Positions 1 through 63,839 of a stretch of 64,000 bases of DNA are shown in pieces. The DNA comes from Euglena gracilis. Taxonomy: Eukaryota. The position numbers and the translations under genes are program-made. The stretch spans positions 12,084,716 through 12,148,715 of the forward strand of contig CP154954.1 of NCBI GenBank assembly GCA_039621445.1, given 5' to 3'. The notes under the pieces were generated by a model, which was not told the origin of the DNA, did not search any database, and saw only the letters and a program-made list of their open reading frames with translations. Positions within the stretch are counted from its first letter, which is position 1; every line of letters begins with the position of its first letter.

Positions 1-1182
1 GGGTAGGTCTTCTGGCCCGGCCCTTCTGGGGTTGATAATCGACCAATTCGGACCTGCCACTCCATTGGGGTGAGGGGGTTTTCTACCCTTGTTCGGACGG
101 CCCACACCCACCTGGCCTGATGTCAAACCCGGTTCCCACTCCTGTGTCCAACGATCACCCCCCCCCCTACACAGGGTACGTATTTCCAGTGATCGTTAAC
201 CTCTTGTACCATAATTGGGGGGGAGGGGATGATCTTTCAAACAGCATTTCTATGTCTAACGTTTTGTGTCCTCTGATTGATGTGATCGCTCGACAAGGGA
301 AAGGAACCAGCAAGAAGAAAAATGTTTTGCTGTACCCAAATTTGATGGACAAGGGCATTGCCATCTGCTTTTCATTGTTCAGTTCAGTTCAGTTCAGTGG
401 CCCGATGGACCAGCCACCCCCTGTTTGCAATGCTTGCGGCATGCTGTTGTTATCGAGGAGGTATCTGTTGCATCACCGCCATCTCCTCATTCAGTCATTT
501 TGTTTCTTTAACTTCATATTAGGGGTGGAGTTGGAGGGTTGTCCCAGACGGGTGACGTCTGAGTCTTCAATTTTCAAACACTTTTGGACACGTGGGCAGG
601 CGTCTTCTTGAACACCATGTCATGTGCCCGTCGTTTTCTTCCCAGACGTTTGCGGTGTATTCGGGCCTGGCAGCCCTGCCGCTCAGGGACACCCGATGTC
701 GTGTTGGTAATGTTTCTGGATTGTTGGAAATGACAGCATTCCCAGAATGATCCCACACAAAAAAAGGAAACCACAGCTGGACCCACAACAGCCATGGCAT
801 GAAACCGGAAGCCACAGCACCCCCCACCCTACCTACCACCCCTCCCAAATCCAAACGTAAACCACCCTAAACCTTGGCTTCTAACTAGGAATGTCTTTAT
901 TCACCCCCCCCCACCCATCAGCTGGGTTAGTTCCATATGTGGGTATCGCGATGGTCAGGGTGAGGCATTTATTCGGTGTCCAAAAGTGCCATCTTCTTTG
1001 CAGGGCAATCCATAACCCCCCCCCAAATTACATAAATGTGCTGGGTCAGGATTTTTTTTTCGCTCAAGGACCGCCCTGCTTCTTTGGGTGGGATGCACTT
1101 TTCGTTCGTCACCTTCACTTAAGTGGACACTCCCACGTGAGCCGTTCCGGCCTTGCCTGTCCGAGTTACGGTAGGGGGGCAG

Positions 1183-5700: not shown

Positions 5701-6264
5701 GCACAGCGCGGACCGCCCTTCGCCGCCGCCGCACCGCCGCCGTCCGCCTCCAGCGCCTCTTCCGCGGCGGCGCCGCCCGCGCCGCCCAGGCGGCCCGCGT
5801 GGCCAGGCACTTATGGCTAAAATGGCCTAAAATGGCCTGAAATGGCCTAAAATGGCCTGAAATGGCCTGAAATGGCCTGAAATGGCCTAAAATGGCCTGA
5901 AATGGCCTAAAATGGCCTGAAATGGCCTGAAATGGCCTGAAATGGCCTAAAATGGCCTGAAATGGCCTGAAATGGCCTGAAATGGCCTGAAATGGCCTGA
6001 AGTGGCCTAAAATGGGCTGAAATGGCCTGAAATGGCCTGAAATGGCCTGAAATGGCCTAAAATGGCCTAAAGTGGCCTAAAATGGCCTAAAATGGCCTAA
6101 AGTGGCCTAAAATGGCCTAAAATGGCCTGAAATGGCCTAAAATGGCCTAAAATGGGGAAATTTTCGGGCTTGACTATAGGTGCCTGCACGTGGCCGCTGC
6201 CGTCCGCCTCCAGTTCGCCGTCCGCCGCCATCTGCGCCGGCAGCCCGCCCTCACCGCCTCCGCT
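1183..6264 (+). CDS. Multi-IQ-motif (calmodulin-binding) protein, partial; exons ~1183-1269, 1916-1991, 5707-5800, 6192-6264
   Basis: The joined exons read in frame ...GRWLLWRG|KVHLVAHRERTAAAIRIQRAWRGHA|ARTALRRRRTAAVRLQRLFRGGAARAAQAARV|AAAVRLQFAVRRHLRR, giving three IQ-like motifs. Introns: 1270-1915 non-conventional, 1992-5706 GT-AG, 5801-6191 non-conventional. The 5' and 3' ends are not resolved. Confidence 0.75.
4047..4663 (+). repeat. Interstitial telomeric (TTAGGG)n array with TTCGGG/TCAGGG/TTAGAG variants
   Basis: About 100 hexamers read directly; lies inside GT-AG intron 1992-5706. Confidence 0.97.
4757..4923. mobile_element. Foldback/MITE-like hairpin between the telomeric arrays
   Basis: CTACAAGGTACC...AAAGAGCCGCCCAACTAGGGTTAA pairs with TTAACCCTAGTTGGGCGGCTCTTT...GGTACCTTGTAG; the centre contains GGCGCCGAAGGCGCC. 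Confidence 0.8.
5001..5211 (+). repeat. Second interstitial (TTAGGG)n array
   Basis: Read directly; preceded by the same 37-bp leader as the first array. Confidence 0.95.
5279..5564. repeat. Element built from palindromic units GGTTGGGCCGCGG(T/C)CG(A/G)CCGCGGCCCAACC
   Basis: Several self-complementary ~30-bp units separated by A/T tracts, with ends GAGGTTGGG/CCCAACCTC. A degenerate copy lies at ~3541-3632. Confidence 0.75.
5804..6186. mobile_element. hAT-like MITE forming non-conventional intron 5801-6191; contains (AAATGGCCTR)n decamer satellite
   Basis: TIR CAGGCACTTATGG/CTATAGGTGCCTG; flanks CGCGTGGC and CACGTGGC match at 7/8. Confidence 0.9.
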
Positions 6265-20700: not shown

Positions 20701-21103
20701 GTTGAAGCAGACTGTGAGGGAACTCTGCAAATTGTGGTGATGTTGGGGATGAAGAGTACAGGAGGACCCGCCTGTGGAGTTGAGTTCTGTGGCAAGTTGG
20801 CCACATCAACGTTATGTACCCCCCCCCCCGCCCCACAGCTCGCCCCCCCCCCCTCCGGCTGTTGGGCCCAACATGCCCCCCCCTCCAAAGTTGGCCCCCG
20901 GCCCGTTGAGGCCAACATGGACCAGGTTTTGAATAGTGCTGAGCTCTTACTATGCGCGCAAACGCGCATTTTTGATGCCCTATGTGAACTGGTTTTTTTG
21001 GCTCCGAAAGGCCAAAAAACATGGTTTTGGGCAGAAAATTTTTTCCGTTTTTTTCCTGACTTTTTTTGACCTGAAAATGACCCAAATTGCATTGGTTCAG
21101 GTC

Positions 21104-21491
21104 TAGGGTTTGATATAAGGAGGGCGTACATGGTTTAGGTGGGGGGGTGTCCCCCACCCCCCCCCCCTCCTCCTGGCCCGCGGGGGGGGGGGGCGGGCAC
21201 CCCCCCCCTTGCAGGGGGGGTCCAGACCGACCCTGGGGGGGTACCCGGGACCCCCCCAAAAAGGGTCAATTTTTCCTCCGGCGCTTTGCGCCGAAATTTC
21301 TTTGCATTTTTTGCAATTTTTTTGCCCAAAAAGTGCCCAAAATGGCACTTTTGGTCGTTTTGGGGGTCAAAAATTTTCGGTCACCCTGACCGCGCCACTG
21401 TTTAGGTGGGGGGGGGTGTCCCCCCCCCCTCCTGGCCCGCAGGGGGGGGGGGTCCGGACCACCCCCCTACCTGTCCTTATATCAAACCCTG
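21104..21491. mobile_element. hAT-like MITE nested in a larger repeat
   Basis: TIR TAGGGTTTGATATAAGG/CCTTATATCAAACCCTG; TSD TTCAGGTC/TTCAGGTT. Confidence 0.88.
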
Positions 21492-21834
21492 TTCAGGTTC
21501 CAAAACGGGGGGGGGTCGAAAAACGGTCGCTTTCGGCTCGAAAACACTTTTTTCGGGTCCGGGAGGCCCAAAAACATGGTTTTGGGCAATTTTTTTTTGA
21601 TTTTTTTCTCGACGTTTTTGCCCGAAAACCGCTAAGTCAGAAGTCTGAACCAATGGAAAAAGTGCACTCTGGCCAGGCGGGGAGTTGCGAGTTGCGGGGA
21701 ATCAAAATACGGTAGATGGGGCCTTCCAAGGAATTTAAATTAGGTCTGTGGACATTTCTTTTGATTTTGCTTCATTTTGGATATCTTTTAAAAATATTGA
21801 ATTTTTCGACTTTTTCAGAATAAGCGCACCCCCT

Positions 21835-22023
21835 ATCATGACGTCAGTCACAGGTCATGATGGCCATCAGGGGTCATCACGCCCATCATGGGTCATGATG
21901 CGCATCAAGGGTCATGATGGCCATGATGGGTCATGATGGCCATCATGGGTCGCGATGGCCATCATGGGTCACGATGGCCATCATGGGTCATGATGGCCAT
22001 CATGGGTCATGATGGCCATCATC
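21835..22023. repeat. 19-bp minisatellite GGGTCATGATGGCCATCAT
   Basis: About 9-10 tandem units, each containing the palindrome ATGATGGCCATCAT. Confidence 0.9.
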
Positions 22024-23802
22024 GGCTCGAAAACACTTTTTCCGGGTCCAGGAGGCCAAACAGCATGGTTTTGGGCAATTTTTTCTCGATTTTTTTCGAC
22101 TTTTTTGGTCGAAAACGGCCAAATGGCTAAGTCCACCAGTGGAAAAAGTGTACGAAATGGCCAAAATCAGCCGAAAAACGGCCGTATCTCGGGCTACGCG
22201 AACAGTTGCGGGGAAATCAAAATACCGGTAGATGGAGTGTTCCAAGGGCTTCAAATTAGGTCTCCGGACATTTCCTTGATTTTGCTTCATTTTTGAGAAA
22301 TTTTGATATTTTAAAATATTGATTTTTTGGCCGAATTTTGGCCGAAAACGGCTCAGTCGGACAGTGGGAAAAGTGTACAAAATGGCCCCGTTGGCCGAAA
22401 ACGGGCATATCTCGGGCTGGGCGGGGAGTTGCAGGGAAATCAAAATACCAGTAGATGGGGCGTTCCAAGGGCTTCAAATTAGGTCTCCGGACATTTCCTT
22501 TGATTTTGCTTTATTTTGGAGATATTTTGAAAATTGATTTTTTTTGGCCAAAATGGCAGAGCCCAAAGGGGGGGGGGGTTAAAAAGGGTGGCGGGCCGAT
22601 CCTACCCAGCTTAGACCCCTTCGCGCGTGAATAACTCGGGCCTGGCGGGGAGTTGGGGGTCAAACCCAGGTGATTTGGAAACTAGAAATCCAGTCGCTTG
22701 CGACTGAAAATTTTTTTTAGGGAACGGGGCCGGGATCATGGTGATAATCCGCCGGTTCCCGAGGTGGCCCCGAGGGGGGGGGGAGGGGGGGTGGGGTTGC
22801 GCTTTTATTTGGACCCTGCGCTTGTAGCGGCCCCGTGCTTCTATAAGGGGGGGGTTATGTGAACCATTCAAATGAATCTTTTGCGACATTGATCCAAAAG
22901 CGATTTTGAATTAATTTTTAAATTTTGAAGCCTGAAACAGTGTGTATTTCTGAGGGAAGAGTAGAGTGGTAGCACAGCGTCCACAAAGTCGAGTTGTGTC
23001 CACGGTATATTTTAATTGGTCAAGGAAGGTATGGCAAACGACCAGGGTTCAAGGTCATTTTTCCCCTCCTTTTTTCACCTCAAGGATTAGGCCTTGAGTT
23101 GCCAGTTCAGGGGTGAAAGAAATTGGTTTTTCACGGGCTCAACGGCAGGTGCAAATTCGGTGAGGAGGGTGCTTTTGTCACATTTCATTTCACAGAATTT
23201 AACACATTGAATTATTTGCATAAGTGCGGCAAATCCACCACCTGAATCAAACGTTTTCACATCATTCCTGTGCGCATTTGTGCAGACAATTGCATTAACA
23301 TACCATTTGAGCAAGTGCGCAGGCAGACCATTTGCACATTTGCACGAATGCTTTGTTTGTGAAAGTGGGCACAAACACCCAAATGCGCCCAGGAGCCAAA
23401 GATTTTTTGATGCAGTTAAAGTGTATGGCATCGTGTTTGGTTCGTTGTCATTTGCCTGAAATCGTTCCCGCACCATCCCACCCACCTGGGGGGTGGGATG
23501 AGTTTTGCCTGACCAAAGGCCAAACTCTTGAAAAAATTTCAAGGGTTTTTGGCTGGTTTTTGGGTTGGTGAGTAGGTCGACTCTGGGGGGGGGGTTGTGC
23601 GAGAAAACGTCCATAGCACTTTTTTTTTTACAGGAGGGGACTCGTGCCTTCTTGCGCACCCTTCTGCCCACCCCCATTGGTATCGATTATTGTGCTCTCA
23701 ATTGCAGTGTTTTCTTTCTGGTATCGCTCGGTTTGACTTCCCTAGAGGGCACCGAATGCTACCCAGCAACGATTCAGCATTCCCACGGTCATTTGTAAAA
23801 GA

Positions 23803-25262
23803 CAGGCATTATTTTTTTTTAAGGCGAGATTTCTCAAAAAATTTTAAGGCATTTTTTAAGGTTTTTTAAGGTTTTTTAAGGCATTTTGAGGAATTTTAAA
23901 TTTTTTTAAGGTTTTTTAAGGCATTTTTTTTCATTGCAATTGCTTTAAATTTCTGACCCTATTCAGGAGATTTGCTTGCCTGTTGGCCTTAAATATCCTA
24001 AAATGGCCTCAAATGGGGAAATTTTGGGGCTTGACCATAGGTGACCAAGGTTGACTGCTTGTTTTTTTTTGAAGTAAAAAAATGTTTTTTTAAAAAAGCA
24101 TGTTTTTTTAATTTTTTTTAAAAACAATTTTTTATAAATAATTTTTTAAAAAAGAAAACAAGTTTTTTAAAAATATGTGTTTTTTTCAAAAAACGCAACA
24201 AAAAAAGTCTGGAACAACTTAAAAAACGTCACTTTTTGATGACAAAAAATAACTTTAGAACTTTTCCCTCAAAAAATGGCCATTAAACTCCCTCAAACCC
24301 CCATTCTTTCACACCTTCCAAAAATCAATATTTTCTCAAAATTTTGAATTTGAGAGGTTTTTGAAGCAAAAGAAATGCCATTGAAAATCCAACAAATTTG
24401 ACAGAGGAAAATTGTCAGTAAAATTTGACTGTGCCAAAACTTGTTCCACCTTTTTTGACCTTCGTTATTCCCCCCCCCTAAAACTACCAAATTTAACCCT
24501 GAAATCTTTGAGGTTTTTTTTGTCAAAATCAACATTTCTCAAAATTTCAATTTTGAGAGACTTTGGAAGCAAAAAAATGCCACTGAAAATCCAAAAAATT
24601 TCCAAGGAAAAAAATGTCAGTAAAAATTAACTGCTCCAAAATTTGGTCCCATTTTTTTTGACCTGCATTTTTTGACCCCCTCCTAAAAACTAACAGTTTT
24701 CATCCCTAAAATTTTGGTGATTTTTTTGCTTGAAATGCTATGGCAAGTGTGGGAAACTGCTCCAGCGTAGTAAATTGTCCCAAATTGGGAGTTCTTTGTT
24801 GTTCATGCAACTTTTGCTGCAATTGCACTTTTGAGCAATTTGGGTTGACCCCTCTAAGAATGTCTCAAGTAATTCAAATCAAGAAAGATGTGGTTGCAAG
24901 TTTTGCTTATTCTAGCCGTGTGCCACAGCTTTTGGTGAACCGAGGCCAACCGAACTATGCCAGAAACCTTGGCAAACAATCCGGTTTTCATATTGTTTAT
25001 TCACAACCGCTTCTGCATTGACTGGCTTTATGCGGGGTTTCAGACATGCCATTATTTTGTTTGGTGCAAGAAAAAAATTCCCAGGGAGAATTTTTAAGGT
25101 TTTTTAAGGTCATCACGGGGAGAAAAAACTTCCCCGGGGTGATTTTTTTAAGGTTTTTTAAGGTTTTTTAAGGTTTTTTAAGGCATTTTGACAAAAAAAT
25201 TTTTAAGGTTTTTTAAGGTTTTTTAAGGTTTTTTAAGGCACCTTAAAAAATAATAATGCCTG
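23803..25262. mobile_element. hAT-like non-autonomous element with TTTTTTAAGG subterminal repeats
   Basis: TIR CAGGCATTATT/AATAATGCCTG; perfect 8-bp TSD GTAAAAGA at 23795-23802 and 25263-25270. Confidence 0.92.
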
Positions 25263-30170: not shown

Positions 30171-30264
30171 CAAGCACCTATAGTAAAAATGGCCGAAAAT
30201 GGCCGAAACTGGCCAAAAATGGCCGAAAATGGCCGAAGATCCGGGGGTCAGCTATAGGTGCTTG
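30171..30264. mobile_element. 94-bp hAT-like MITE, same family as intron 5801-6191
   Basis: TIR CAAGCACCTATAG/CTATAGGTGCTTG; perfect TSD AGGCCGAT; internal AAAATGGCCG decamers. Confidence 0.92.
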
Positions 30265-30409: not shown

Positions 30410-33400
30410 ATGCCGCTCACCCCGGCGGTCCCCGCCAAGCCCTGGTCAGGCTTCTTTTTAAGTCACCTGCCCCCCCCCCCCGGGCAGGGTTGGATGGGAA
30501 GCCCTTCGGTATTGAGGTAGGTGGTAGGGGGGGGGGTCGCTGAGCTCTTATCCCTTTATGGGTAAGAGCGAAGCTTACCACTGGGGGAAAACCCCCCCTC
30601 GACCCGCCCCCCCCTCCCCCCCCCCCTCGGGGCCACCTCGGGAACCGGCGGATTATCACCATGATCCCGGCCCCGTTCCCGAAATTTTTTTTTTCAGTCG
30701 CAAGCGACTGGATTCCTAGTTTCCGAATCACCTGAGTTTGACCCCCAACTCCCCGCCAGGCCCGAGTTATTCACGCGCGAAGGGGTCCAAACTGGGTAGG
30801 ATTGGCCAACCCCCCTGGATAAGCCCCCCCCCTTTGGACGGGCAAAAAAAAGTCAATTTTCAAAATATCTCCAAAATGAAGCAAAATCAAAGGAAATGTC
30901 CGGAGACCTAATTTGAAGCCCTTGGAACGCCCCATATGCCGGTATTTTGATTTCCCCGCAACTCTCCGCCTGGCCCGAGATACGGCCGTTTTTGGCCCGG
31001 ATGGCCGTTTTGTACACTTTTTCCACTGTTCGACTTAGCCGTTTTCGGGGGGTGGGGGGTCAAAAAACGAATGTTTTCAAAATTTCTCGAAAATGTTGCA
31101 AAATCAAAGGAAATGTCCGGAGACCTAAATTGAAGCCCTTGGAACGCTCTATCTACTGGGACTTTGGTTTCCCCACAACTCCCCGCCCAGCCCGAGATAC
31201 GGGCGTTTTTTGGCCAATTTGAGCCGTTTCAGGCCATTTTGTACACTTTTCCCTCTGTTCGACTTGGCCGTTTTCGGCCCAAAAAAGTCGAAAAAAATCG
31301 AAAAAATTTTTTTGGCCCGAAACGATGTTTTTGGGCCTCCCGGACCCGGAAAAACTGTTTTTGAGCCGAAAACGAGCGCTTTTCGACCCGCCAGCGCCCC
31401 GTTTTGGGCCGCCGACCCATTGACTTTGGGTCAAAACCGGGTCAAAAAGTCGAAAAAAATCGAAAATTTTTTTTTGGCCCGAAACGATGTTTTTTGGCCT
31501 CCCGGACCTGGAAAAACTGTTTTTGAGCCGGAAACGAGCGCTTTTCGACCCGCCAGCGCCCCGTTTCGGGCCGCCGACCCATTGATTTTGGGTCAAAAAG
31601 TCGAAAAAATCGAAAAAAAATCGAAAAATTTTTTTTGCCCGAAACGATGTTTTTTGGCCTCCCGCACCCGGAAAAACTGTTTTTGAGCCGAAAACGAGCG
31701 TTTTTCGACCCGCCAGCGCCCCGTTTTGGGCCGCCGACCCATTGACTTTGGGTCAAAACCGGGTCAAAAAAGTCAAAAAAAATCGAAAAAATGTTTTGCC
31801 CGAAACGATGTTTTTGGGCCTCCCGGACCCGGAAAAACTGTTTTTGAGCCGAAAACGAGCGTTTTTCGACCCGCCAGCGCCCCGTTTTGGACCGCCGACC
31901 CATTGACTTTGGGTCAAAGCCGGGTCAAAAAAGTCGAAAAAATTCGAAAAATTTTTTTTTGCCCCAAACGATGTTTTTTGGCCTCTCGGACCCAGAAAAA
32001 CTGTTTTGAGCCGAAAACGAGCGTTTTTCGACCCGCCAGCGCCCCGTTTTGGACCGCCGACCCATTGACTTTGGGTCAAAACCGGGTCAAACCGGGCCGC
32101 CGGGCTGCCGGGCCGTCGGGCCGCCGGGCCGGGGTCAATGAAGGGGTGGGGGCGCGCTTATAAAGAGCTCAGCACTATTCAAAACCTGGTCCCGACCCCC
32201 CCCCTGGGGGGGTAAGGTGGTGGGGGGGGTCCGGACCCCCCCTGATAGCAGAAAATTTTCTTCCGGCGCTGCGCGCCAGAAAATGAGCAAAAAAACACCC
32301 CTTTTGCTGACTTTTGGTAATATTGCCCATTTTTTTGATGTGTTGGTGTTTTCCCCCAAAAATATCTTCAAAAAAATTCAAAATATGAGCATTTTTGGAT
32401 CGATTTTCAAAGAAAATTCAGGGTTTTTTGACCGATTCCGATCCAATTTCCGGCCCTTTCCCCGTCCATGAAATCGAAAAAGTTTCGGCCCCCCCTCAGT
32501 TTCGAGGTAGGAGGGGGTCCGACCCGTGTCGGAAGGGGGGGTCCGACCCCCCCCCCCCCCCTCAAGGCTTCCCATCCATCCCTGCCCCCGGGGGATGGGT
32601 GGGTCCGGACCCCCGCCGGGGGGGGGGGTCCCGCGCCGGAGGCGCTGGGTATCCGTTTTGAGCACGAAGCGCCGAAAATTTTTGATAATTGCCTTTAACG
32701 GGCCCGATTTTGGGGGGGGGTCCCGCGCCACCCTGGGTGGGTGGGGGACCCCCCCTCCCGGGGGTCTTAAAAAGAAGCCTGGCCCTGGTCACAGTGGGAG
32801 AACTACCGGAAGCTCAAGAAGCTGGTCGCCACCGGGTCCTACCGGCCCCCAGAATGGTGTGTCCCCCCTATGCCACCCCATCTCTGCCCGATGAACCCAC
32901 CCATGGAAATGCTCGGTGGCCAGGCCGAGCTTTTTTCCCCGGGATGGTCGCACCCATACCATTGTTAACACCTGTCCCACCCCCCCACCCCCGGGGGGGT
33001 GACTGACTGGTTTTTTCATAGTGACTGACTGGTTTTCTGGCCAAGAACCCCCCCCCCCCCCGTGGTGGGGTAGGCCCGAAAATGGAAAAGTGGCTGGCCT
33101 TGCGACGATGGCACCGGAAATTTTTTGAGACTTTTTGGCAAATTTTCCCTTTGACAAAAATTTGGCAAAAATTGCCTCCTCCTCATCATTCAAGAGTGGC
33201 CTATCCCCCGGGGGGGGGTAAAGTGACTGACTGGCTTTTTGGGGAAAAGTGACTGATTGTTTTTATCAGAATGGACAGTGGCCCCCCCCTCCCCCCCCCC
33301 CAGGGATCGCTAAGCAATGGTATGGTCGCACCCCCCCCTCTGAAGCTCTGGAGGCAGGGAGAGAATTGATCTCTACAATTTTCCCGCAATTTCCGCAATT

Positions 33401-36400
33401 CTTCGCAGTTTCCACAATTTTCCGCAATATCCCCGCAATTTCCCTCCTTTTTTTCGCAGTTTTTGCATGAACCTGAAATGGAACGCGAAGTGAGTTCTTG
33501 CCATTCTTCGAGCGTTTCACCAGGCCACCCAGGTGGTTTTTTTGTTATTTTGTTTCAAACTTGCCAAAAATTGCCATATTTCACAAATTTTGACAAAATA
33601 TAGCATTTTTTAGGTTTTCCCTCAATTTCTGCTGGAAATAATTTTGACTGAGAAAAATTCTGTATCTTTTGCCAGATTTTGCCTGAGACCAAAAATTCCG
33701 GCAATTTTTTTCTGGGTTTGGTTTTTCGCCCAAGAAATTACATTATTCCAGAATCAGCATGTCCCCAAAATGTTTTTTGGACGTTTTTGTTGGTGAAAAA
33801 TGTCTCAAAATTTACACCTACGTTACAAATGCGGAAAGTGGCAGAAGAATTGCGGGAATTGCAGGAAAAGTGTGGAAAAATTGTGGAAAGTGTGATTTGG
33901 GAACCACTACACTTCTGCTCGAGGGGACTTCAAAAATTTCACAAAATTGTGAAATTTTTGAAGTCCCCTCCAGTAGAAGTGTAGTCGTACCCAAAAGCGC
34001 ACTTTCCACAATTTTCCCGCACTTTTCCTGCAATTCCCGCAATTTTTCTGCAATTTTCCGCAATTTTTTTTTTCGGAAGCCTCCGATATCAATCCCCTCC
34101 ATGGAATCAGAATCAGAAAATATTATTAGATACATTAATCAAGAACCCTGGATTCTCATAATTCTAAATTGGATTCGTGATAAGTGGACAAAGTGCACAT
34201 TTGTTGAGTTTGTGAATTGCAAAGTTGTGTGCAGTGAGGTCGGATTTTTTTTTATCGCATTTTTCTTTGGGAGCCGCGCTTGAACCACCTATGAACCCGA
34301 CACACTGCACCCTTGACATAGGTATTATGCCATGCGCGTGTCGCCTCCGCCTCCCCGGTCATACAAGGACCCGACCCGGGTGGTTCAGGCCAAGCGATCT
34401 CCGATCGCCAAACAGCTGATGAAGGTGTGGGGTCTCATCTGTCTCATTGCCCCCCCTTTGCCCACCACAAATTGGACCCCTGTATACTGGCCACCCCCTG
34501 GTCCGGGGTTGTATGCCAATGAGTGCGTATGACCACCCCCCACTGGTCGGGGGTTGTGGGAACCCGGTTGGTGGGCAAGGGGGGGGGGTACCTGTGAAAC
34601 TTCCGTCCCTCTTTCAGTCCAGTCTTTGTTGGACCCGGGTCTCGGCGAAGTCCTCATTGGCTTGCCATGCCCCAGTTCAGCTTCTCATCTGGGCCGGTGT
34701 CCTCTGCTGCATTTTGGTTCATGCGCTGGTCATGGAACGTTTCGCGTTCACACATATTCCTGCGTTCAGAGCCTGATGGGTCAGGCAATTGCCACCCAGC
34801 AGTGCAGGGCCCTGCCTCTTTCGGCCGGGGTTTGTGTTGCAGGAACACCCGCACCTCCACACCATGGGGTCCAGCATCTTCAACAACTTCTGGATGGAGA
34901 AGCCAGGTCTGCTCACCCCCGCCTCCTCCTGGAGCAGTTGTAAACCTGTCTCAGATGGGACTTGTTGCCACGCAACAAGTCCTTTTGATGATGGAAACCA
35001 AATCAATGAACACAGAGTTACCTGTTGTGAAAGTTGGCCTCTTAAGAGAACTGTTTTCGTCAGGGTGGGAGGAATGTCCAACTAAATAGATTCAAGGCCA
35101 CAGCGAGTATTCAGCTTTTTTCCAACGCCCCACCAACACAAAAAATCTGAACGCCATTTTTAACACAAGTTTTTCACTGGTGGGCAGGATTCAATAATGT
35201 AAATTTTTTTCTGGAAGCATGGTAGTTCAATGGGGGGAAACCATTGGCAGAAGACAGGTTGCTGGGCATTGATGATCATCCCCGACATGGTGTGGGCGTT
35301 GAGTCCCCCCTAAGGCCATTTATACCTAAAGAATGGTGTTCATTGAAGGAAATGTCTTCCATGACCCCTCCCAATTGGTTCACAGCAGTGTTGTTGTTTT
35401 TTTCAGACCAAATTTGGAACATCTGGGTAGTGCAAGGGGCGATGAACCCCAATTGAGACGATCAAACCCCCTGAACTGCGCCTCCGCTGGACCTGGGTCA
35501 CCCTCCCTTGGCGTGTCTCGGTGGACGCGGTCCCCCCCCCCTCTCCCCCCTCGCAGTGGAACGGCTTGTCCGGCAGTACGAGGTGCTGCGCTCGGAGGGG
35601 CTCTCCGCCCAGGAGGCGTACGCCAAGGTGAGCGATGAGTGCGCCCGGACGGTGAACGTCATCCGGCGGCAGCAGTCCATCATGGCCCACCAGGTGGGTG
35701 GCCGCCCGGCCTGGCCATCAAGCCCGGACCATAGTTTAACGTAACACCTGTGTGACCCCACCCCCTGGGGGGGGGGTGGACTTTTCGAGAGTGGGGGTGG
35801 GTTGGGGCCTCTGCCCCCCCCCCCGGGTTGCACCACGAAACAAGTTTTTCTACCCAGCCAAAGGCCGGGGCGGAATTTTTTTTCAGCATTTTCGGCCGAT
35901 TTTGGCAGTATTTCGCGTGGGCGGGTGGGTGGTTGACCCCTGAGGGGGTTGTTGGGTGGGTTTTCAAAAAAGTGCGTGGGTGAGTTTGGGCCTGGGAAAA
36001 AGTGCCCCACTTAGTTTATCTATGGCCCTGACACAGAGGCATTTGACCTCTGGCGCCAACCCCCAACCCATGATGCGCCTCTGGCTGCCTTGTGGCATCC
36101 TGCATTTGTTCCTGCATAGGAACAACAGCATTTTAACAGCATAGGAAAGGAACGGAGGGAGATGACACGAATGTGTTCTTCCTCTTGAAGTCGTTTGCCA
36201 CTCTCCACCCCCACGCATCCCTGGCCGTCCTGCTGGGCATTTGACCCCAACGTGCACTAGCCTCCCCGGCTAGTGCCCGGCTAGCTAGCCTCCCCGGGCT
36301 CTCGGCTCTCGGCTGCATCCCCTGCTCTTGGCACACATTTTTTTTGTGGAAAAAGGCAAATATACACCAGAAACCTTCGGTCTGCGGGCCCAACGTACCC

Positions 36401-39400
36401 CCCCCACCTTTTCCCAAACGTGGGGTGTGGTGGGCGGAGATTTATTGAGATTTGATTTATTGGGATGGATTTATTGACCCTCCCCCGGATTTTGCCCCAT
36501 TCCCGGGCTGGAAGGTTGGGACAAGATCGGGGGGGGGGGGTGGAGCACCGTTGGCCTCGCCTTTCTTTGAAATTCTCGTTGCAGGCCAAAGTGGATGGGA
36601 CATCGATGGATAGGGCTGCAGAGGCGACTGGCCTGAGCTGTTTGGTATTACCCCAGGAACTTTTTTTTCATTTGCGTGCTTGTATGGCCGTATCTCTCAA
36701 ACATCACACGAATTGGCCGTTTTTGAATAAATGCGACATTTTTTTTTTGCATTGTGCGTTTTACAGTCCACCCCATACTGCACGTTGTATTCAGTTTTCA
36801 TTTTCCTCCTGTTTCATTCAACTCATGTATTTGTTTTTGTATACCAGAAATCAAGGTGGGAAATCAGAGAAATGACAGGTGGGAACAGAGGGGAACCTGT
36901 CAGCGAAGGCAAAAATAGTCTGGATTGAAAGTGGTGGTATTGGGGAGTGGTCGCTGAGATTTCCGATGTTCATGACGGAACGCCCCCTTTCCCCCTCTCT
37001 GAGCCCTGCGGGGGACCATTCGCGAGGCCCAGGGCATGCTGCGGGTCGCCGGCTGGGTGCAGCGCAGCACCCAGGCCTCCCGCCAGACGGACTACGCCGG
37101 CATGCACGAGGGTATGGGGCGATGCCTTCCATTTGCACCCCTTCCTCGTGGCTTATCCCATCCCCCTCCTCAACTCTTCTTGTTCGAGAGAGAAAGCATT
37201 GGCTGTATTTTTTTTGTATTTTTGGGGGTTTTCACCTCAAAAATTTAGCTGAAAAATGCATCCCAGCTGATTTTGGCGGTTCAGCTGGTTTTTTTTTGGG
37301 TCCCAGCCGGGTCCACCCCGGAAGCTGGGACCTCCAGGGGTGGAGGGTCCCAGCAAGCGTCCAGCCAGCACCTTTTTTCCAGATAGCACCTTTTTCCAGC
37401 CGGCCGGCTGGAACCCGGGGGAGGGGTCAGGGCTGAATGGGAATCGGCCGGACAGCCAGGGTGGTGGGTGGGGATCGACCCCCACCACCTCTTCCCGTTC
37501 CCAATTTTTTTTGCGGCGCCTTCCGCACCGGGTGTATTTTGCACCCATTTTGGGACCCATGTAGGAAGTCCCCCCAAAGACCCCCAAAACCCCATTTTCT
37601 CACATTTTCAAAAATTTCAACATTTTCTTAAAAATTTTATTTTGAGAGGTTTTTGAGGCAAAAAATTCTATTGAAAATCCAAAAAAATCCAAGAGAAAAA
37701 CTGTCACTAGAATTTGACTGTGCCAAAATTTGGTCCAATTTTTTTTGACCTTCGTTTTTTTTCACCCCCCCTACCAATTTTTAAACCTGAATTTTTGATT
37801 TTTTTTTGTGAAAAGAATTTGTTTTCCATCAAAAAATCATTTATTTTTTATTCATCATTTCTCAAAAAAATTCTCAAAAAATTTCCCCGGCCAAATTCCT
37901 TGTTTTCCCAAAAATGGTGAAAATGCTGTGGTGGGTGGGGGGGTCAACCCCCACCTCCTGGGGGGGGGGGTCGACCCCCCACCAGGCCTTCCTGTTCTGC
38001 CCTGGGGGGTCCTTAAGATATTCCCTGTTTCCGATCCCTGTTTTCTCCAGAGAATATGGATTCCTGTGGCAAGTTATGAAGAAGACTTGAAGAATATCTG
38101 ATTGTGCTGTTTTTTTTCCCTTCTTGGTTTCAGAAGAGTCACTAATACAATAGAATTTCATGTAAAATTAAAAATCCGGGCAAAATGTATGCATTATGTT
38201 GTAAAACATATGTTTTACATGTTGCGTGTGTTACATTTATTACGCACATTATATATGTCCACCCCTGTTTGTGTGTCCGTCGACACGCTTTTCATCAGTG
38301 GTTAGGGGCACTCACATTGACCCGGAAGTCATAGGAAGGCCTGGTATTTTATATACAACATGGCAGCATGTATATGATATTGTATATATAATATTACAAT
38401 ATACAATATGGAAGCAAGATTCTTGACGTTCCCCGGGGGGGGGGGGAGGGGCATTTACAATCTCCAGGGGGGGTATGGCGACACCCGGGTCCGACTTCGA
38501 GGGAAAGTTGGGGTTATTGTTTGGAGATAGGGTTAGGGTTCGGACCGGTGCCCCGTTTTCAGAATTTTCAGAGAAGTCCCCGTTCTGGTGCAGTTAGGCA
38601 GAATTTGGGCTGAATTTCGGTAACATTCCAATGAAAATGCGACGCAAACGTCTTCCGAAACAGGGACCTAGCTTCCAGCCTGACTTTTTTCCCTAAACAG
38701 GACCCATTTTTGGCGCGCCGATCTGAACTGACCGAGCCTGACCATGTTCCTAAAAATAAGTGCCCATCCTCCGGAAATCCGATGGATTTCGCCCGGATCC
38801 GGCACAGTTGGGGCTGCAGTGGGGGCAGGGCAGAACGGGAATCGGCCAAACAAGCAGGGTGGTGGATAGGGGGGGGGGTCGACCCCACCACATCCTCCCG
38901 TATTTCCGGAAGCACCAATTTTCGACCCCCAAAATTTTTGTTAAAAATGTCTGTGTCTGCCCTGGTTGGGGGTGGAATCGACTGAAAGATCCGGAACGTC
39001 GGACCTGGGTGCCGCCATACTCCCTCCCCCCTGGTGACCCAGGCCCGCGGGGGGTGTTAAGAACCTTGCTGCCAAACAAAAATAATATATATATATATAT
39101 AATATATGTACATGTATGTACCATACATTATATTAAAGAATTATTAATATGTAGTGTTAGTTGTGTAATGTGTAAGATATAATACATAATATATAATCTA
39201 ATGTATACTGTACAGTGCATGTATGTTTAGTGCATACTTTTTATGATAATACACAATTTACAACATTATAGTACTATAATATCATAATAATGTGATAATA
39301 ACGGAATATTATAATATTATAAATATGTCACATAATATGTAGAAATAATGTATATATCTTAATTTTATTATTTAATAACAAATGCGGTGCAAAAAAACGA

Positions 39401-39599
39401 ACTTCCATTCTCCCTCACAGCCATTCGCACCAAGGTGGTCCGCGACATGAACCACCTCTACGTCCAGAACCCAGGGGTCTGGAATATCGTGGACCAAGGG
39501 GCGGCCACAGAAGTACGCTCCCAGTCTCCCATGGAACGTAGCGAGTGGAACAGAAGCAATCCCTCCATTCCCAGCACTGAACCGGAAAGGTTGGTATAA
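30410..39599 (+). CDS. Probable mitochondrial ribosomal small-subunit protein mS23 (MRPS23/Rsm25 family); exons 30410-30443, 32787-32856, 34322-34424, 34843-34906, 35557-35693, 36585-36607, 37014-37111, 39421-39599
   Basis: Complete in-frame model: MPLTPAVPAKPWSQWENYRKLKKLVATGSYRPPEWYYAMRVSPPPPRSYKDP...QLMKEHPHLHTMGSSIFNNFWMEKPVERLVRQYEVLRSEGLSAQEAYAKV...STEPERLV*. The P.WY....PP, HP and E..V.....L...G.S...AY pattern resembles mS23 as I recall it; no search was run. It has five GT-AG and two non-conventional introns. Confidence 0.65.
30485..32584. mobile_element. Nested hAT-like element
   Basis: TIR CAGGGTTGGATGGGAAGCC/GGCTTCCCATCCATCCCTG; perfect TSD CCCCCGGG. Confidence 0.88.
31280..32090. 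repeat. ~160-bp tandem repeat (about 5 units) inside the nested element; related sequence in reverse orientation at ~21500-22730
   Basis: The unit ...CCCGAAACGATGTTTTTGGGCCTCCCGGACCCGGAAAAACTG...CGACCCATTGACTTTGGGTCAAAA is repeated. Also, 30625-30800 is the reverse complement of ~22600-22775. Confidence 0.85.
33830..34062. repeat. ~230-bp near-perfect palindrome (foldback)
   Basis: The arms meet at ...AAAATTTCACAAAATTGTGAAATTTT... (~33945). Confidence 0.9.
37428..38004. mobile_element. MITE of the CAGGGC(A/T)GAA family within a GT-AG intron
   Basis: Ends CAGGGCTGAATGGGAA/TTCCTGTTCTGCCCTG; subterminal GGAATCGGCC...GGGTGGTGG...CGACCCC shared with 13753-14242. Confidence 0.75.
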
Positions 39600-41076
39600 C
39601 ACACAAACCGAAAGCAGTGGGTATGGGACGCCAATGATGGCAAAGCCCACCTAAAAAGCCCCTCCCCCCACTCACACAACAAACGTCCGGCTGCTGTTTT
39701 CGTCGCAGGCCCCTCCGGAAGCAGTGCCGGCCGCAACGAAAGCTTCGGCCGCCGTTTGAGCGGACCCTTCTGCTTTGGCCCGGCACCCCTCGCTGTCCAC
39801 CACAACAACGAAGCTTTCCCCCATCTGTTTGCCCCTCCGTGTGAGCAGGGCGATTGTGCCCCAGTCCTCAGGATTATTTTCTTGCGCCCGCTCAAATTGG
39901 ACCGTTAGATTGAAATCGGGCAAATTACACCCACAAAAATTACACCCACACAAATTACACACACACAAATTACGCACACACACACACACATAACACACAC
40001 ACACACACACACATATGTTGAGGCTTGAACCCATCCAGATCCTCACTGCTTTTGTTCGGAGGGAGAGATGTTGCTCTTTTTCGGAGGGGGAGAAAATGAA
40101 TGACAGAGGAAAGCACCTCATTTTCATTTTTTTTTAAATAATTTTAGGCGCCCTCTAACTATTGGCCCCCCGGGGGAGAGGGCCAAGCAGTTAGACGGAG
40201 GGGGGGGGCGGCCCATTTTCTTAAACACATACCAACACTAGGCCTTCCATCCTATGCATTTGTCCGGACATCTCTGGCGGGGAGCGCAAAACCACAGTCC
40301 GGAAACGCGCTGGGGGTCCGACTGCCCCAACATTTAACTACTGGGCCCCTCCCCCCCGGGGGGGGGCCCAGTAGTTAAACTACTTGGCCGCCTAATTTAT
40401 TCTAAATATTTATTATATTATAAACCCCACCCCCCACTTGGAACCCCCCCCACTTATATCCCCCCCCCCCCTCGGGCCGACCAACCAAACCGGATCCCAT
40501 AACCCCCCCCCCTGGGGAAAGAAAATGGAAACTGCCAGGGACGATTTTTTTCGCCACAAACCACCCAAAAAACTGATTTTTTGGCTTTTTTTTTTGAGAC
40601 CGACCATCGTCAAGAATGCCATTTTTGACCAAGTCTGCCGAAAATTGCCAATTTGGGGGGGTTTCGGGTCGTTTTGGGGGGTCGTATTTTCACCAACAAT
40701 TCCGGAGCCTATAACCTCCCCCCCCACTTATACCCCCCTCCCTTCGGCCGACCAACTAATCCGGATCCTAAACCCCGGGGGGTTTATAAGTGGGGTGTTA
40801 TATTATTTATTAGATAATTTTTTTATTATATATCTTTTTTATGTTTTTTAGCTTTTTTTTGTTTTTAATCTGTCGCACTTCCTTGAAAAATGCAGGATTG
40901 TGCACTCATTTTTGACCTTTTTGAAGAACGACCCCTGCTTGTGTTTGATTTGCACCACTTCGCAAGTGCAATTGCCGAATGGTTTGATCCATATGCTGGT
41001 TCAAATGGCCCAGAACTGCCTTTCCATGGTAATACCCTTTGTGTTGGTAATGAGTGATGTTCATCATGCTTTTCTG

Positions 41077-44202: not shown

Positions 44203-63839
<19,637 letters not shown>

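Follow-up and report, generated by a model that had tools for sequence, protein, structure and literature searches.

An insertion of a DNA transposon interrupts the nuclear gene encoding mitoribosomal protein mS23 in a 64,000-nucleotide stretch of the Euglena gracilis genome (assembly GCA_039621445.1, contig CP154954.1, positions 12,084,716 to 12,148,715 of the forward strand; hereafter the window, numbered from its first letter). We consider it likely that this insert, a MITE (a transposable element of miniature, inverted-repeat type) that carries another element nested inside it, is excised from the pre-mRNA as a nonconventional (NC) intron, by a geometry in which the 3- and 5-nucleotide spacers at the two ends of such introns add up to one 8-bp target site duplication (TSD). 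In E. agilis, 71.8% of all introns are of the NC type, and the origin and the removal mechanism of euglenid NC introns have been standing questions since the 1990s. Since 2014 these introns have been suggested to derive from MITEs, with no transposon family identified as the source. At the mS23 locus, the long-standing proposal that Euglena NC introns began as transposons can be tested concretely, and the link it provides can be counted: a transposon family with an 8-bp TSD, one copy of it in a conserved codon, and 3+5 spacers that remove exactly that length.

The insert is a real transposon insertion inside coding sequence, with terminal inverted repeats (TIRs) and a TSD. It is located in codons 12-13 of the mS23 gene, spans 2335 bp (30447-32781), and is flanked by two copies of GCCCTGGT (30439-30446 and 32782-32789) that are identical at 8 of 8 positions. 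The plus copy of its 16-bp TIR, CAGGCTTCTTTTTAAG (30447-30462), and the minus copy (32766-32781) are complementary at 16 of 16 positions. When this 16-mer was sought with up to 2 mismatches, the window yielded four matches versus 0.10 expected, and 0 of 100 shuffles reached four. The coordinates given for the TIRs, the TSD, and the interrupted Trp12 codon in a preliminary description of this locus were all exact on recheck. The direct repeat at the insert is actually 10 bp long (GCCCTGGTCA), because both exon and TIR go on with CA, and therefore 11 pairs of intron boundaries are equivalent. The preliminary description also called the element freshly inserted; 24 matching positions do not date an insertion, and the insert is composite, with no single fresh unit. 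Its parts and a related copy used for comparison are listed below (no strand is assigned to repeats and elements, here and in the later list).

30439 to 30446: left TSD copy, GCCCTGGT, by sequence identity
30447 to 32781: 2335-bp composite DNA transposon, non-autonomous, whose 16-bp TIRs CAGGCTTCTTTTTAAG are perfect, from TIR and flank scans
30447 to 30484: left 38 bp of the outer MITE shell, up to and including the left CCCCCGGG flank copy (30477-30484), from flank scan and alignment
30485 to 32584: nested element, 2100 bp, TIR CAGGGTTGGATGGGAAGCC / CAGGGATGGATGGGAAGCC (19 nt, 1 mismatch), flanks CCCCCGGG matching at 8/8; interior of repeats only
31282 to 32124: tandem array in the nested element, five units of ~161 bp each, from repeat detection
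32585 to 32781: right part of the outer shell, 197 bp, from alignment to element A
32782 to 32789: right TSD copy, GCCCTGGT, by sequence identity
8122 to 8363: element A, a 242-bp MITE of the focal TIR family, ends CAG-CTTCTTTTTAAC / CAGGTTTCTTTTTAAC; flanking 8-mers agree at 1/8

Because a 2100-bp element is nested within the insert and the remaining shell aligns to element A, the insert is a MITE of ~227 bp with a 2.1-kb, repeat-filled element inside, instead of the single unit of the preliminary description. The shell measures 227 bp once the nested element and one CCCCCGGG copy are removed, and it shares 172 identical positions with element A (shuffles: mean 131.7, maximum 142), which is contiguous across the position that the nested element occupies in the focal copy. 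Besides the tandem array, the nested element holds two ~217-bp units (30840-31215), and similar units recur at 21499-22791. The ends of the nested element also conform to the NC splicing code considered below (GGG-CAG...CTG-CCCCC|G). It is possible that the nested element would be removed from the pre-mRNA first and that the 227-nt shell would then leave as a second NC intron, a nuclear "twintron."

To follow the coding sequence across the insert we used P0001 (EukProt EG_transcript_26412), a 223-aa E. gracilis transcriptome-derived protein found by searching with the open reading frame (ORF) of exon 2. The gene had previously been described as mS23-like with an interrupted Trp12 codon, and its identity as mS23 is confirmed by matches to six kinetoplastid mitoribosomal mS23 proteins in all (PDB sequence search; 7aor_p, E = 1.9e-18, and E values to 7.5e-15). 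The kinetoplastid alignments begin at residue 11-12 of P0001, and Pfam gave no match to the MRP-S23 domain on P0001. Residues W12, S13, and Q14 are invariant in 3/3 aligned homologues, and two homologues further to the kinetoplastid proteins keep them; the insert therefore sits in a conserved motif. P0001 is encoded in nine exons (30410 to 39756), and 222 of its 223 residues are identical to the window; residue 77 (window 34864-34866, exon 4) is L in P0001 versus M in the window, and so there is a second version of the mS23 gene (an allele, a paralogue, or one from another strain).

30410 to 39759, plus strand: mS23 gene including stop, nine coding exons, from P0001 mapping, with identity by PDB sequence search
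30410-30443, 32787-32856, 34322-34424, 34843-34906, 35557-35693, 36585-36607, 37014-37111, 39421-39512, and 39709-39759, plus strand: mS23 coding exons, from P0001 mapping
30410 to 30443, plus strand: coding part of exon 1, MPLTPAVPAKP and the first base of Trp12 (N3/N5 convention), an exact match to P0001 residues 1-12
30444 to 32786, plus strand: nonconventional intron 1, 2343 nt, by the N3-CAG...CTG-N5|R convention; 10 other boundary pairs yield an identical mRNA
32787 to 32856, plus strand: exon 2, GG of Trp12 and then SQWENYRKLKKLVATGSYRPPEW, followed by GT-AG intron 2 (32857-34321), from P0001 mapping
36608 to 37013, plus strand: intron 6, GGA-TAGGGCT...AGCCCTG-CGGGG|g, which fits N3-YAG...CTG-N5|R; 2 compatible positions only and no GT-AG option

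The start codon of mS23 is at 30410 and the Trp12 codon (TGG) at 30443-30445. The N-terminus of P0001, MPLTPAVPAKPWSQWENYRK, reads ...AKPW|SQWENYRK across the insert site, which is the sequence that the preliminary description had obtained by removing 30444-32786. The transcript-derived protein thus crosses the insert site without a scar. A second homologue, P0002 (ENA, from a 523,671-bp contig), is 174 aa long and 63% identical over 52% of the query; it follows P0001 to about residue 120 and diverges after that, possibly because gene prediction in another euglenid genome read on into an intron.

Six of the eight mS23 introns have a GT-AG option, the exceptions being introns 1 and 6. For intron 1, which contains the insert, none of the 11 boundary pairs compatible with P0001 is GT-AG or GC-AG. 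Placed at 30444-32786, intron 1 reads GGT-CAG...CTG-GCCCT|G and shows every term of the NC splicing code 5'-N3CDG-/-CH'GN5-6|R, which was derived from knock-ins in E. gracilis (Nomura et al. PNAS 2025, PMC12501133). The same paper reports that a 1-nt alteration of the 5' spacer abolished NC splicing, that the 3' spacer tolerated +1, and that the downstream exon preferably opens with a purine. The intron 1 ends form a 19-bp helix (30444-30462 with 32766-32784) of -55.6 kcal/mol, versus -27.9 +/- 4.1 kcal/mol in shuffles. The earlier claim that the ends of the insert obey the CAG/CTG code of NC introns holds.

If the 3+5 spacers correspond to a TSD, the length of the repeats that flank CAG...CTG-ended elements is the quantity of interest. 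We scanned the window for every CAG/TAG...CTG pair in which 10 or more of 12 positions are paired (n = 440). Flanking 8-mers with at most 1 mismatch were found in 7 of the 440 pairs, the nested element at 30485-32584 among them, and in 4 they were exact. Four slid controls gave no pairs with at least 7 flank matches, and in 30 Markov simulations the number of pairs with near-matching flanks averaged 0.13 and never exceeded 1. Exact flank repeats numbered 1, 0, 0, 4, 0, and 0 at k = 5 to 10, and among k = 6 to 13 they occurred only at k = 8. These counts support a flank-repeat length of 8 bp for CAG...CTG-ended elements in the window, equal to the published 3+5 spacers. Aside from a 94-bp CAAGC... 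element, other termini with 8-bp flank repeats (ATA, TAT, CGG, GCG, and GGG) proved to be artefacts of microsatellites, tandem arrays, or poly-G/C and were rejected. For 11 elements, the stop-free spans that run through the restored site were uninformative in this GC-rich DNA, and the true mS23 frame was absent from the two longest.

Under the N5 rule, TSD position 6 becomes the base that opens the exon. Nine elements have flanks that agree at 6/8 or better, and in 8 of them this base is a purine, as it also is in the element at 32955-33324. A C-TGG-T-like core recurs in several TSDs. The purine required by the code might come from target preference itself, in a sample too small to judge.

We propose the following sequence of events for the mS23 locus. 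A non-autonomous cut-and-paste transposon of ~227 bp with CAG...CTG termini would have inserted at the conserved W12-S13 codons and produced the 8-bp TSD, and a second, 2.1-kb element of a similar general kind would have become nested inside it. In the pre-mRNA, the TIRs would pair into a helix, and the non-spliceosomal euglenid machinery would cut at two points, one lying 3 nt upstream of the CAG and the other 5 nt downstream of the CTG, before a purine. Because 3+5 equals the 8-bp duplication, the cut would take the element and exactly one TSD copy; the excision would restore the pre-insertion mRNA and give a normal mS23 product. Because the ends are inverted repeats, the geometry would also hold in the opposite orientation. 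The match of 3+5 to 8 would explain why an insertion into an exon can be harmless. The model predicts a distribution of "slidable" distances, splicing that is independent of orientation, and frameshifts when the length of the TSD is altered, and it limits the machinery to be sought to a system that gauges distance from the end of a helix.

Several observations weigh against this reading. Intron 1 slides over 11 positions and, because any offset yields an identical mRNA, is in itself no test of the 3+5 rule; from the earlier statement that 3+5 equals one 8-bp TSD, the published spacers and the 8-bp flanks in the window are upheld, whereas the focal intron does not fix the offset. Intron 6, the sole other NC intron in the window, has flanking 8-mers that agree at 2/8, and the pairing of its ends is no stronger than in shuffles. 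A stricter, complexity-filtered scan was weaker, with 5 exact repeats at k = 8 versus 8 at k = 6, and these 5 comprise 2 with CAG, 1 with CAA, and 1 with CAT ends and 1 tandem-array artefact. The CCCCCGGG flank of the nested element is of low complexity. Among the 128 window ORFs of at least 130 aa, the 20 longest contain no transposase (Pfam), with a sub-threshold LamB match only. Finally, the difference at residue 77 indicates that P0001 comes from another allele, paralogue, or strain, possibly one without the insertion, and an empty site and scarless splicing yield an identical mRNA.

The last point bears on an explanation in which the insertion is real and the interrupted copy is a null allele, the normal transcript coming from a haplotype or paralogue that was never hit, with no removal at the RNA level. 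At least two versions of mS23 exist, given L77 in P0001 and M77 in the window, and no candidates came from a search for protein fragments predicted on contigs that have or lack the element. However, the ends of the insert contain every element of the code that is reported as sufficient for splicing in E. gracilis exons by knock-in (PMC12501133), their helix is far stronger than in shuffles, and the other 8 exons and 7 introns of the insert-carrying copy are intact. We regard the null-allele explanation as unlikely and infer that the RNA of the insert-carrying allele is spliced. Removal by the ordinary spliceosome would need the GT at 30445 and the AG at 32793-32794, which are present; that pair excises 2350 nt instead of 2343 nt and shifts the frame, as the preliminary description had noted, and with none of the compatible boundary pairs being GT-AG or GC-AG, GT-AG removal is contradicted by both the protein-level junction and the frame, and we give it practically no credence. 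It is also very improbable that the 8-nt junction repeats arose by repair of a double-strand break with filler DNA and with no transposition, a reading proposed for an E. agilis gapC intron (PMC4770533), since several unrelated sites in the window combine common terminal sequences, inverted-repeat ends, and 8-bp flank repeats, and one of the elements is nested, which is the pattern of a transposon family.

Which superfamily the elements belong to is a separate matter. The preliminary description favored hAT, whose typical members have an 8-bp TSD, YARNG-type ends, and 11-16-bp TIRs, and one Anolis hAT/hobo family begins TAGGCTTG (a TAGGC-type end) (PMC3014272). Like hAT MITEs, the elements here have an 8-bp TSD (8/8 at the focal site, and exact window repeats at k = 8), CAG/TAG-type termini, and short TIRs. 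Left ends CAGGG, TAGGG, CAGTG, and CAGCG fit YARNG (4 elements), whereas CAGGC, CAGCT, CAAGC, CATGC, and CATAC do not (8 elements), the CAGGC ends failing at the fifth position. The nTnnnnAn-type target of the Anolis hAT consensus, with T at TSD position 2 and A at position 7, is a tendency and not a strict rule, and it is seen in 0 of 9 TSDs. A hAT transposase combines a DDE/RNase H fold with a C-terminal hAT dimerisation domain; none of the 20 longest window ORFs matches any transposase family. The 8-bp TSD and the terminal motif are the sole basis of the hAT assignment, and "hAT-like" is the best, if unproven, label.

The elements could instead be real transposons that become NC introns and belong to Merlin, P, or a superfamily as yet undescribed whose TSDs are 8 bp long. 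E. gracilis itself is reported to have two Merlin families that make 8-bp TSDs (PMC8101967), the window elements have TSDs within the 8-9 bp of Merlin, and our literature search found no paper connecting euglenids with hAT; the missing transposase, the target sites, and the CAGGC ends point the same way. Merlin families, however, have longer TIRs and are all said to begin 5'-GG (PMC8101967), a start seen in 0 of 11 window elements, all of which begin with CA or TA flush with the flank repeat, and the typical hAT features favor hAT. We consider membership in a superfamily other than hAT possible, though on the doubtful side.

The splice rule, in general, appears to reflect transposon ancestry. 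More broadly, and with confidence just short of even, we hypothesize that NC splicing is an RNA-level "excisionase" matched to cut-and-paste transposons with CAG...CTG ends and 8-bp TSDs, and that most NC introns are decayed copies of them. If so, any such element in an exon would be removed together with one TSD copy in either orientation, the pyrimidine|purine context common to both junctions would be one TSD position read twice, and nested insertions would produce nuclear NC "twintrons."

Parts of this picture have precedents. The MITE origin that the preliminary description referred to is found in PMC3935182, which proposed a MITE-like origin of NC introns, and a similar suggestion exists for diplonemid introns (PMC12621601). 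"TSD-like" repeats and TIRs at +4..6 and -8..-6 are described in PMC11282704, a review according to which an NC intron is released as a full-length circular RNA, and PMC12501133 states that the origins of NC introns are unclear. Our literature search found no paper linking the 3+5 spacers with an 8-bp TSD or with hAT; subscription papers and supplements were outside the search.

The focal intron resembles published euglenid NC introns (Milanowski 2014/2016; PMC12501133) in having no GT-AG, CAG at +4..+6, CTG at -8..-6, paired ends, 3/5-nt spacers, and an exon purine. Their origin is given in PMC12501133 as unclear, with a "MITE-like" hypothesis, whereas the focal intron can be identified as a transposon, with a perfect TSD and perfect TIRs. 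Unlike the NC introns described in the passages of those papers that bear on this comparison, it has relatives nearby that are not introns, and it contains a further, nested element. The closest case is intron 4 of E. agilis gapC in strain ACOI 323, an NC intron that is strain-specific, was gained recently, and carries eight-nucleotide direct repeats where it joins the exons (Milanowski et al. 2016, PMC4770533); the passages of that paper on this intron read it as double-strand-break repair and offer neither a transposon or TIR family nor a link to 3+5. Introners (Micromonas, dinoflagellates, and others) and the MITE-derived introns of Fritillaria and Amoebophrya (PMC11282704) are likewise TIR+TSD transposons that become introns, with the TSD aiding exact excision. 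In those systems the spliceosome, or a modified one, uses signals that the element carries or that are co-opted from the TSD, whereas the non-spliceosomal NC pathway would remove the focal intron, with the TIR helix setting the position.

In addition to the focal insert and element A, the window contains the following elements.

5804 to 6186: 383-bp element, TIR CAGGCAC(T/C)TAT.G; flanks CGCGTGGC/CACGTGGC, 7/8
21104 to 21491: 388-bp element, ends TAGGGTTTGATATAAG / CAGGGTTTGATATAAG; flanks TTCAGGTC/TTCAGGTT, 7/8
23803 to 25262: 1460-bp element, TIR CAGGCATTATT...; TSD GTAAAAGA 8/8
30171 to 30264: 94-bp MITE (CAAGC...), ends CAAGCACCTATAG; TSD AGGCCGAT 8/8; 146 nt upstream of the mS23 ATG
32955 to 33324: 370-bp element, ends CATACCATTG, within GT-AG intron 2 of mS23; TSD GTCGCACC 8/8
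51557 to 52384: element B, 828 bp, focal TIR family, CATGCTTCTTTTTACC / CAGGCTTCTTTTTACC; flanking 8-mers agree at 5/8
55810 to 58497: 2688-bp candidate element, ends CAGTGTCCAGGGG / CAGTTTCCAGGGG; flanks CTCTGGTC/CTCTGGTG, 7/8
60632 to 61017: 386-bp element, perfect 16-bp TIR CAGGCTTTTGCTTAAG, related to the focal TIR; TSD GGTGAATC 8/8

The three copies that share the focal TIR within the 64 kb (the focal insert and elements A and B) have little in common beyond their termini, and location in coding sequence is shown for the focal copy only. With same-TIR copies alike mainly at their ends and one of them in coding sequence, the "active introner system" of the preliminary description goes further than the window does. 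The ends of the 94-bp MITE upstream of mS23 are similar to those of the element at 5804-6186. The element at 21104-21491 has asymmetric TAGGG/CAGGG ends, an end pattern identical to that of mS23 intron 6, and is itself nested in 20919-22934, a degenerate inverted relative (~83% identity across 784 bp) of the interior of the nested element.

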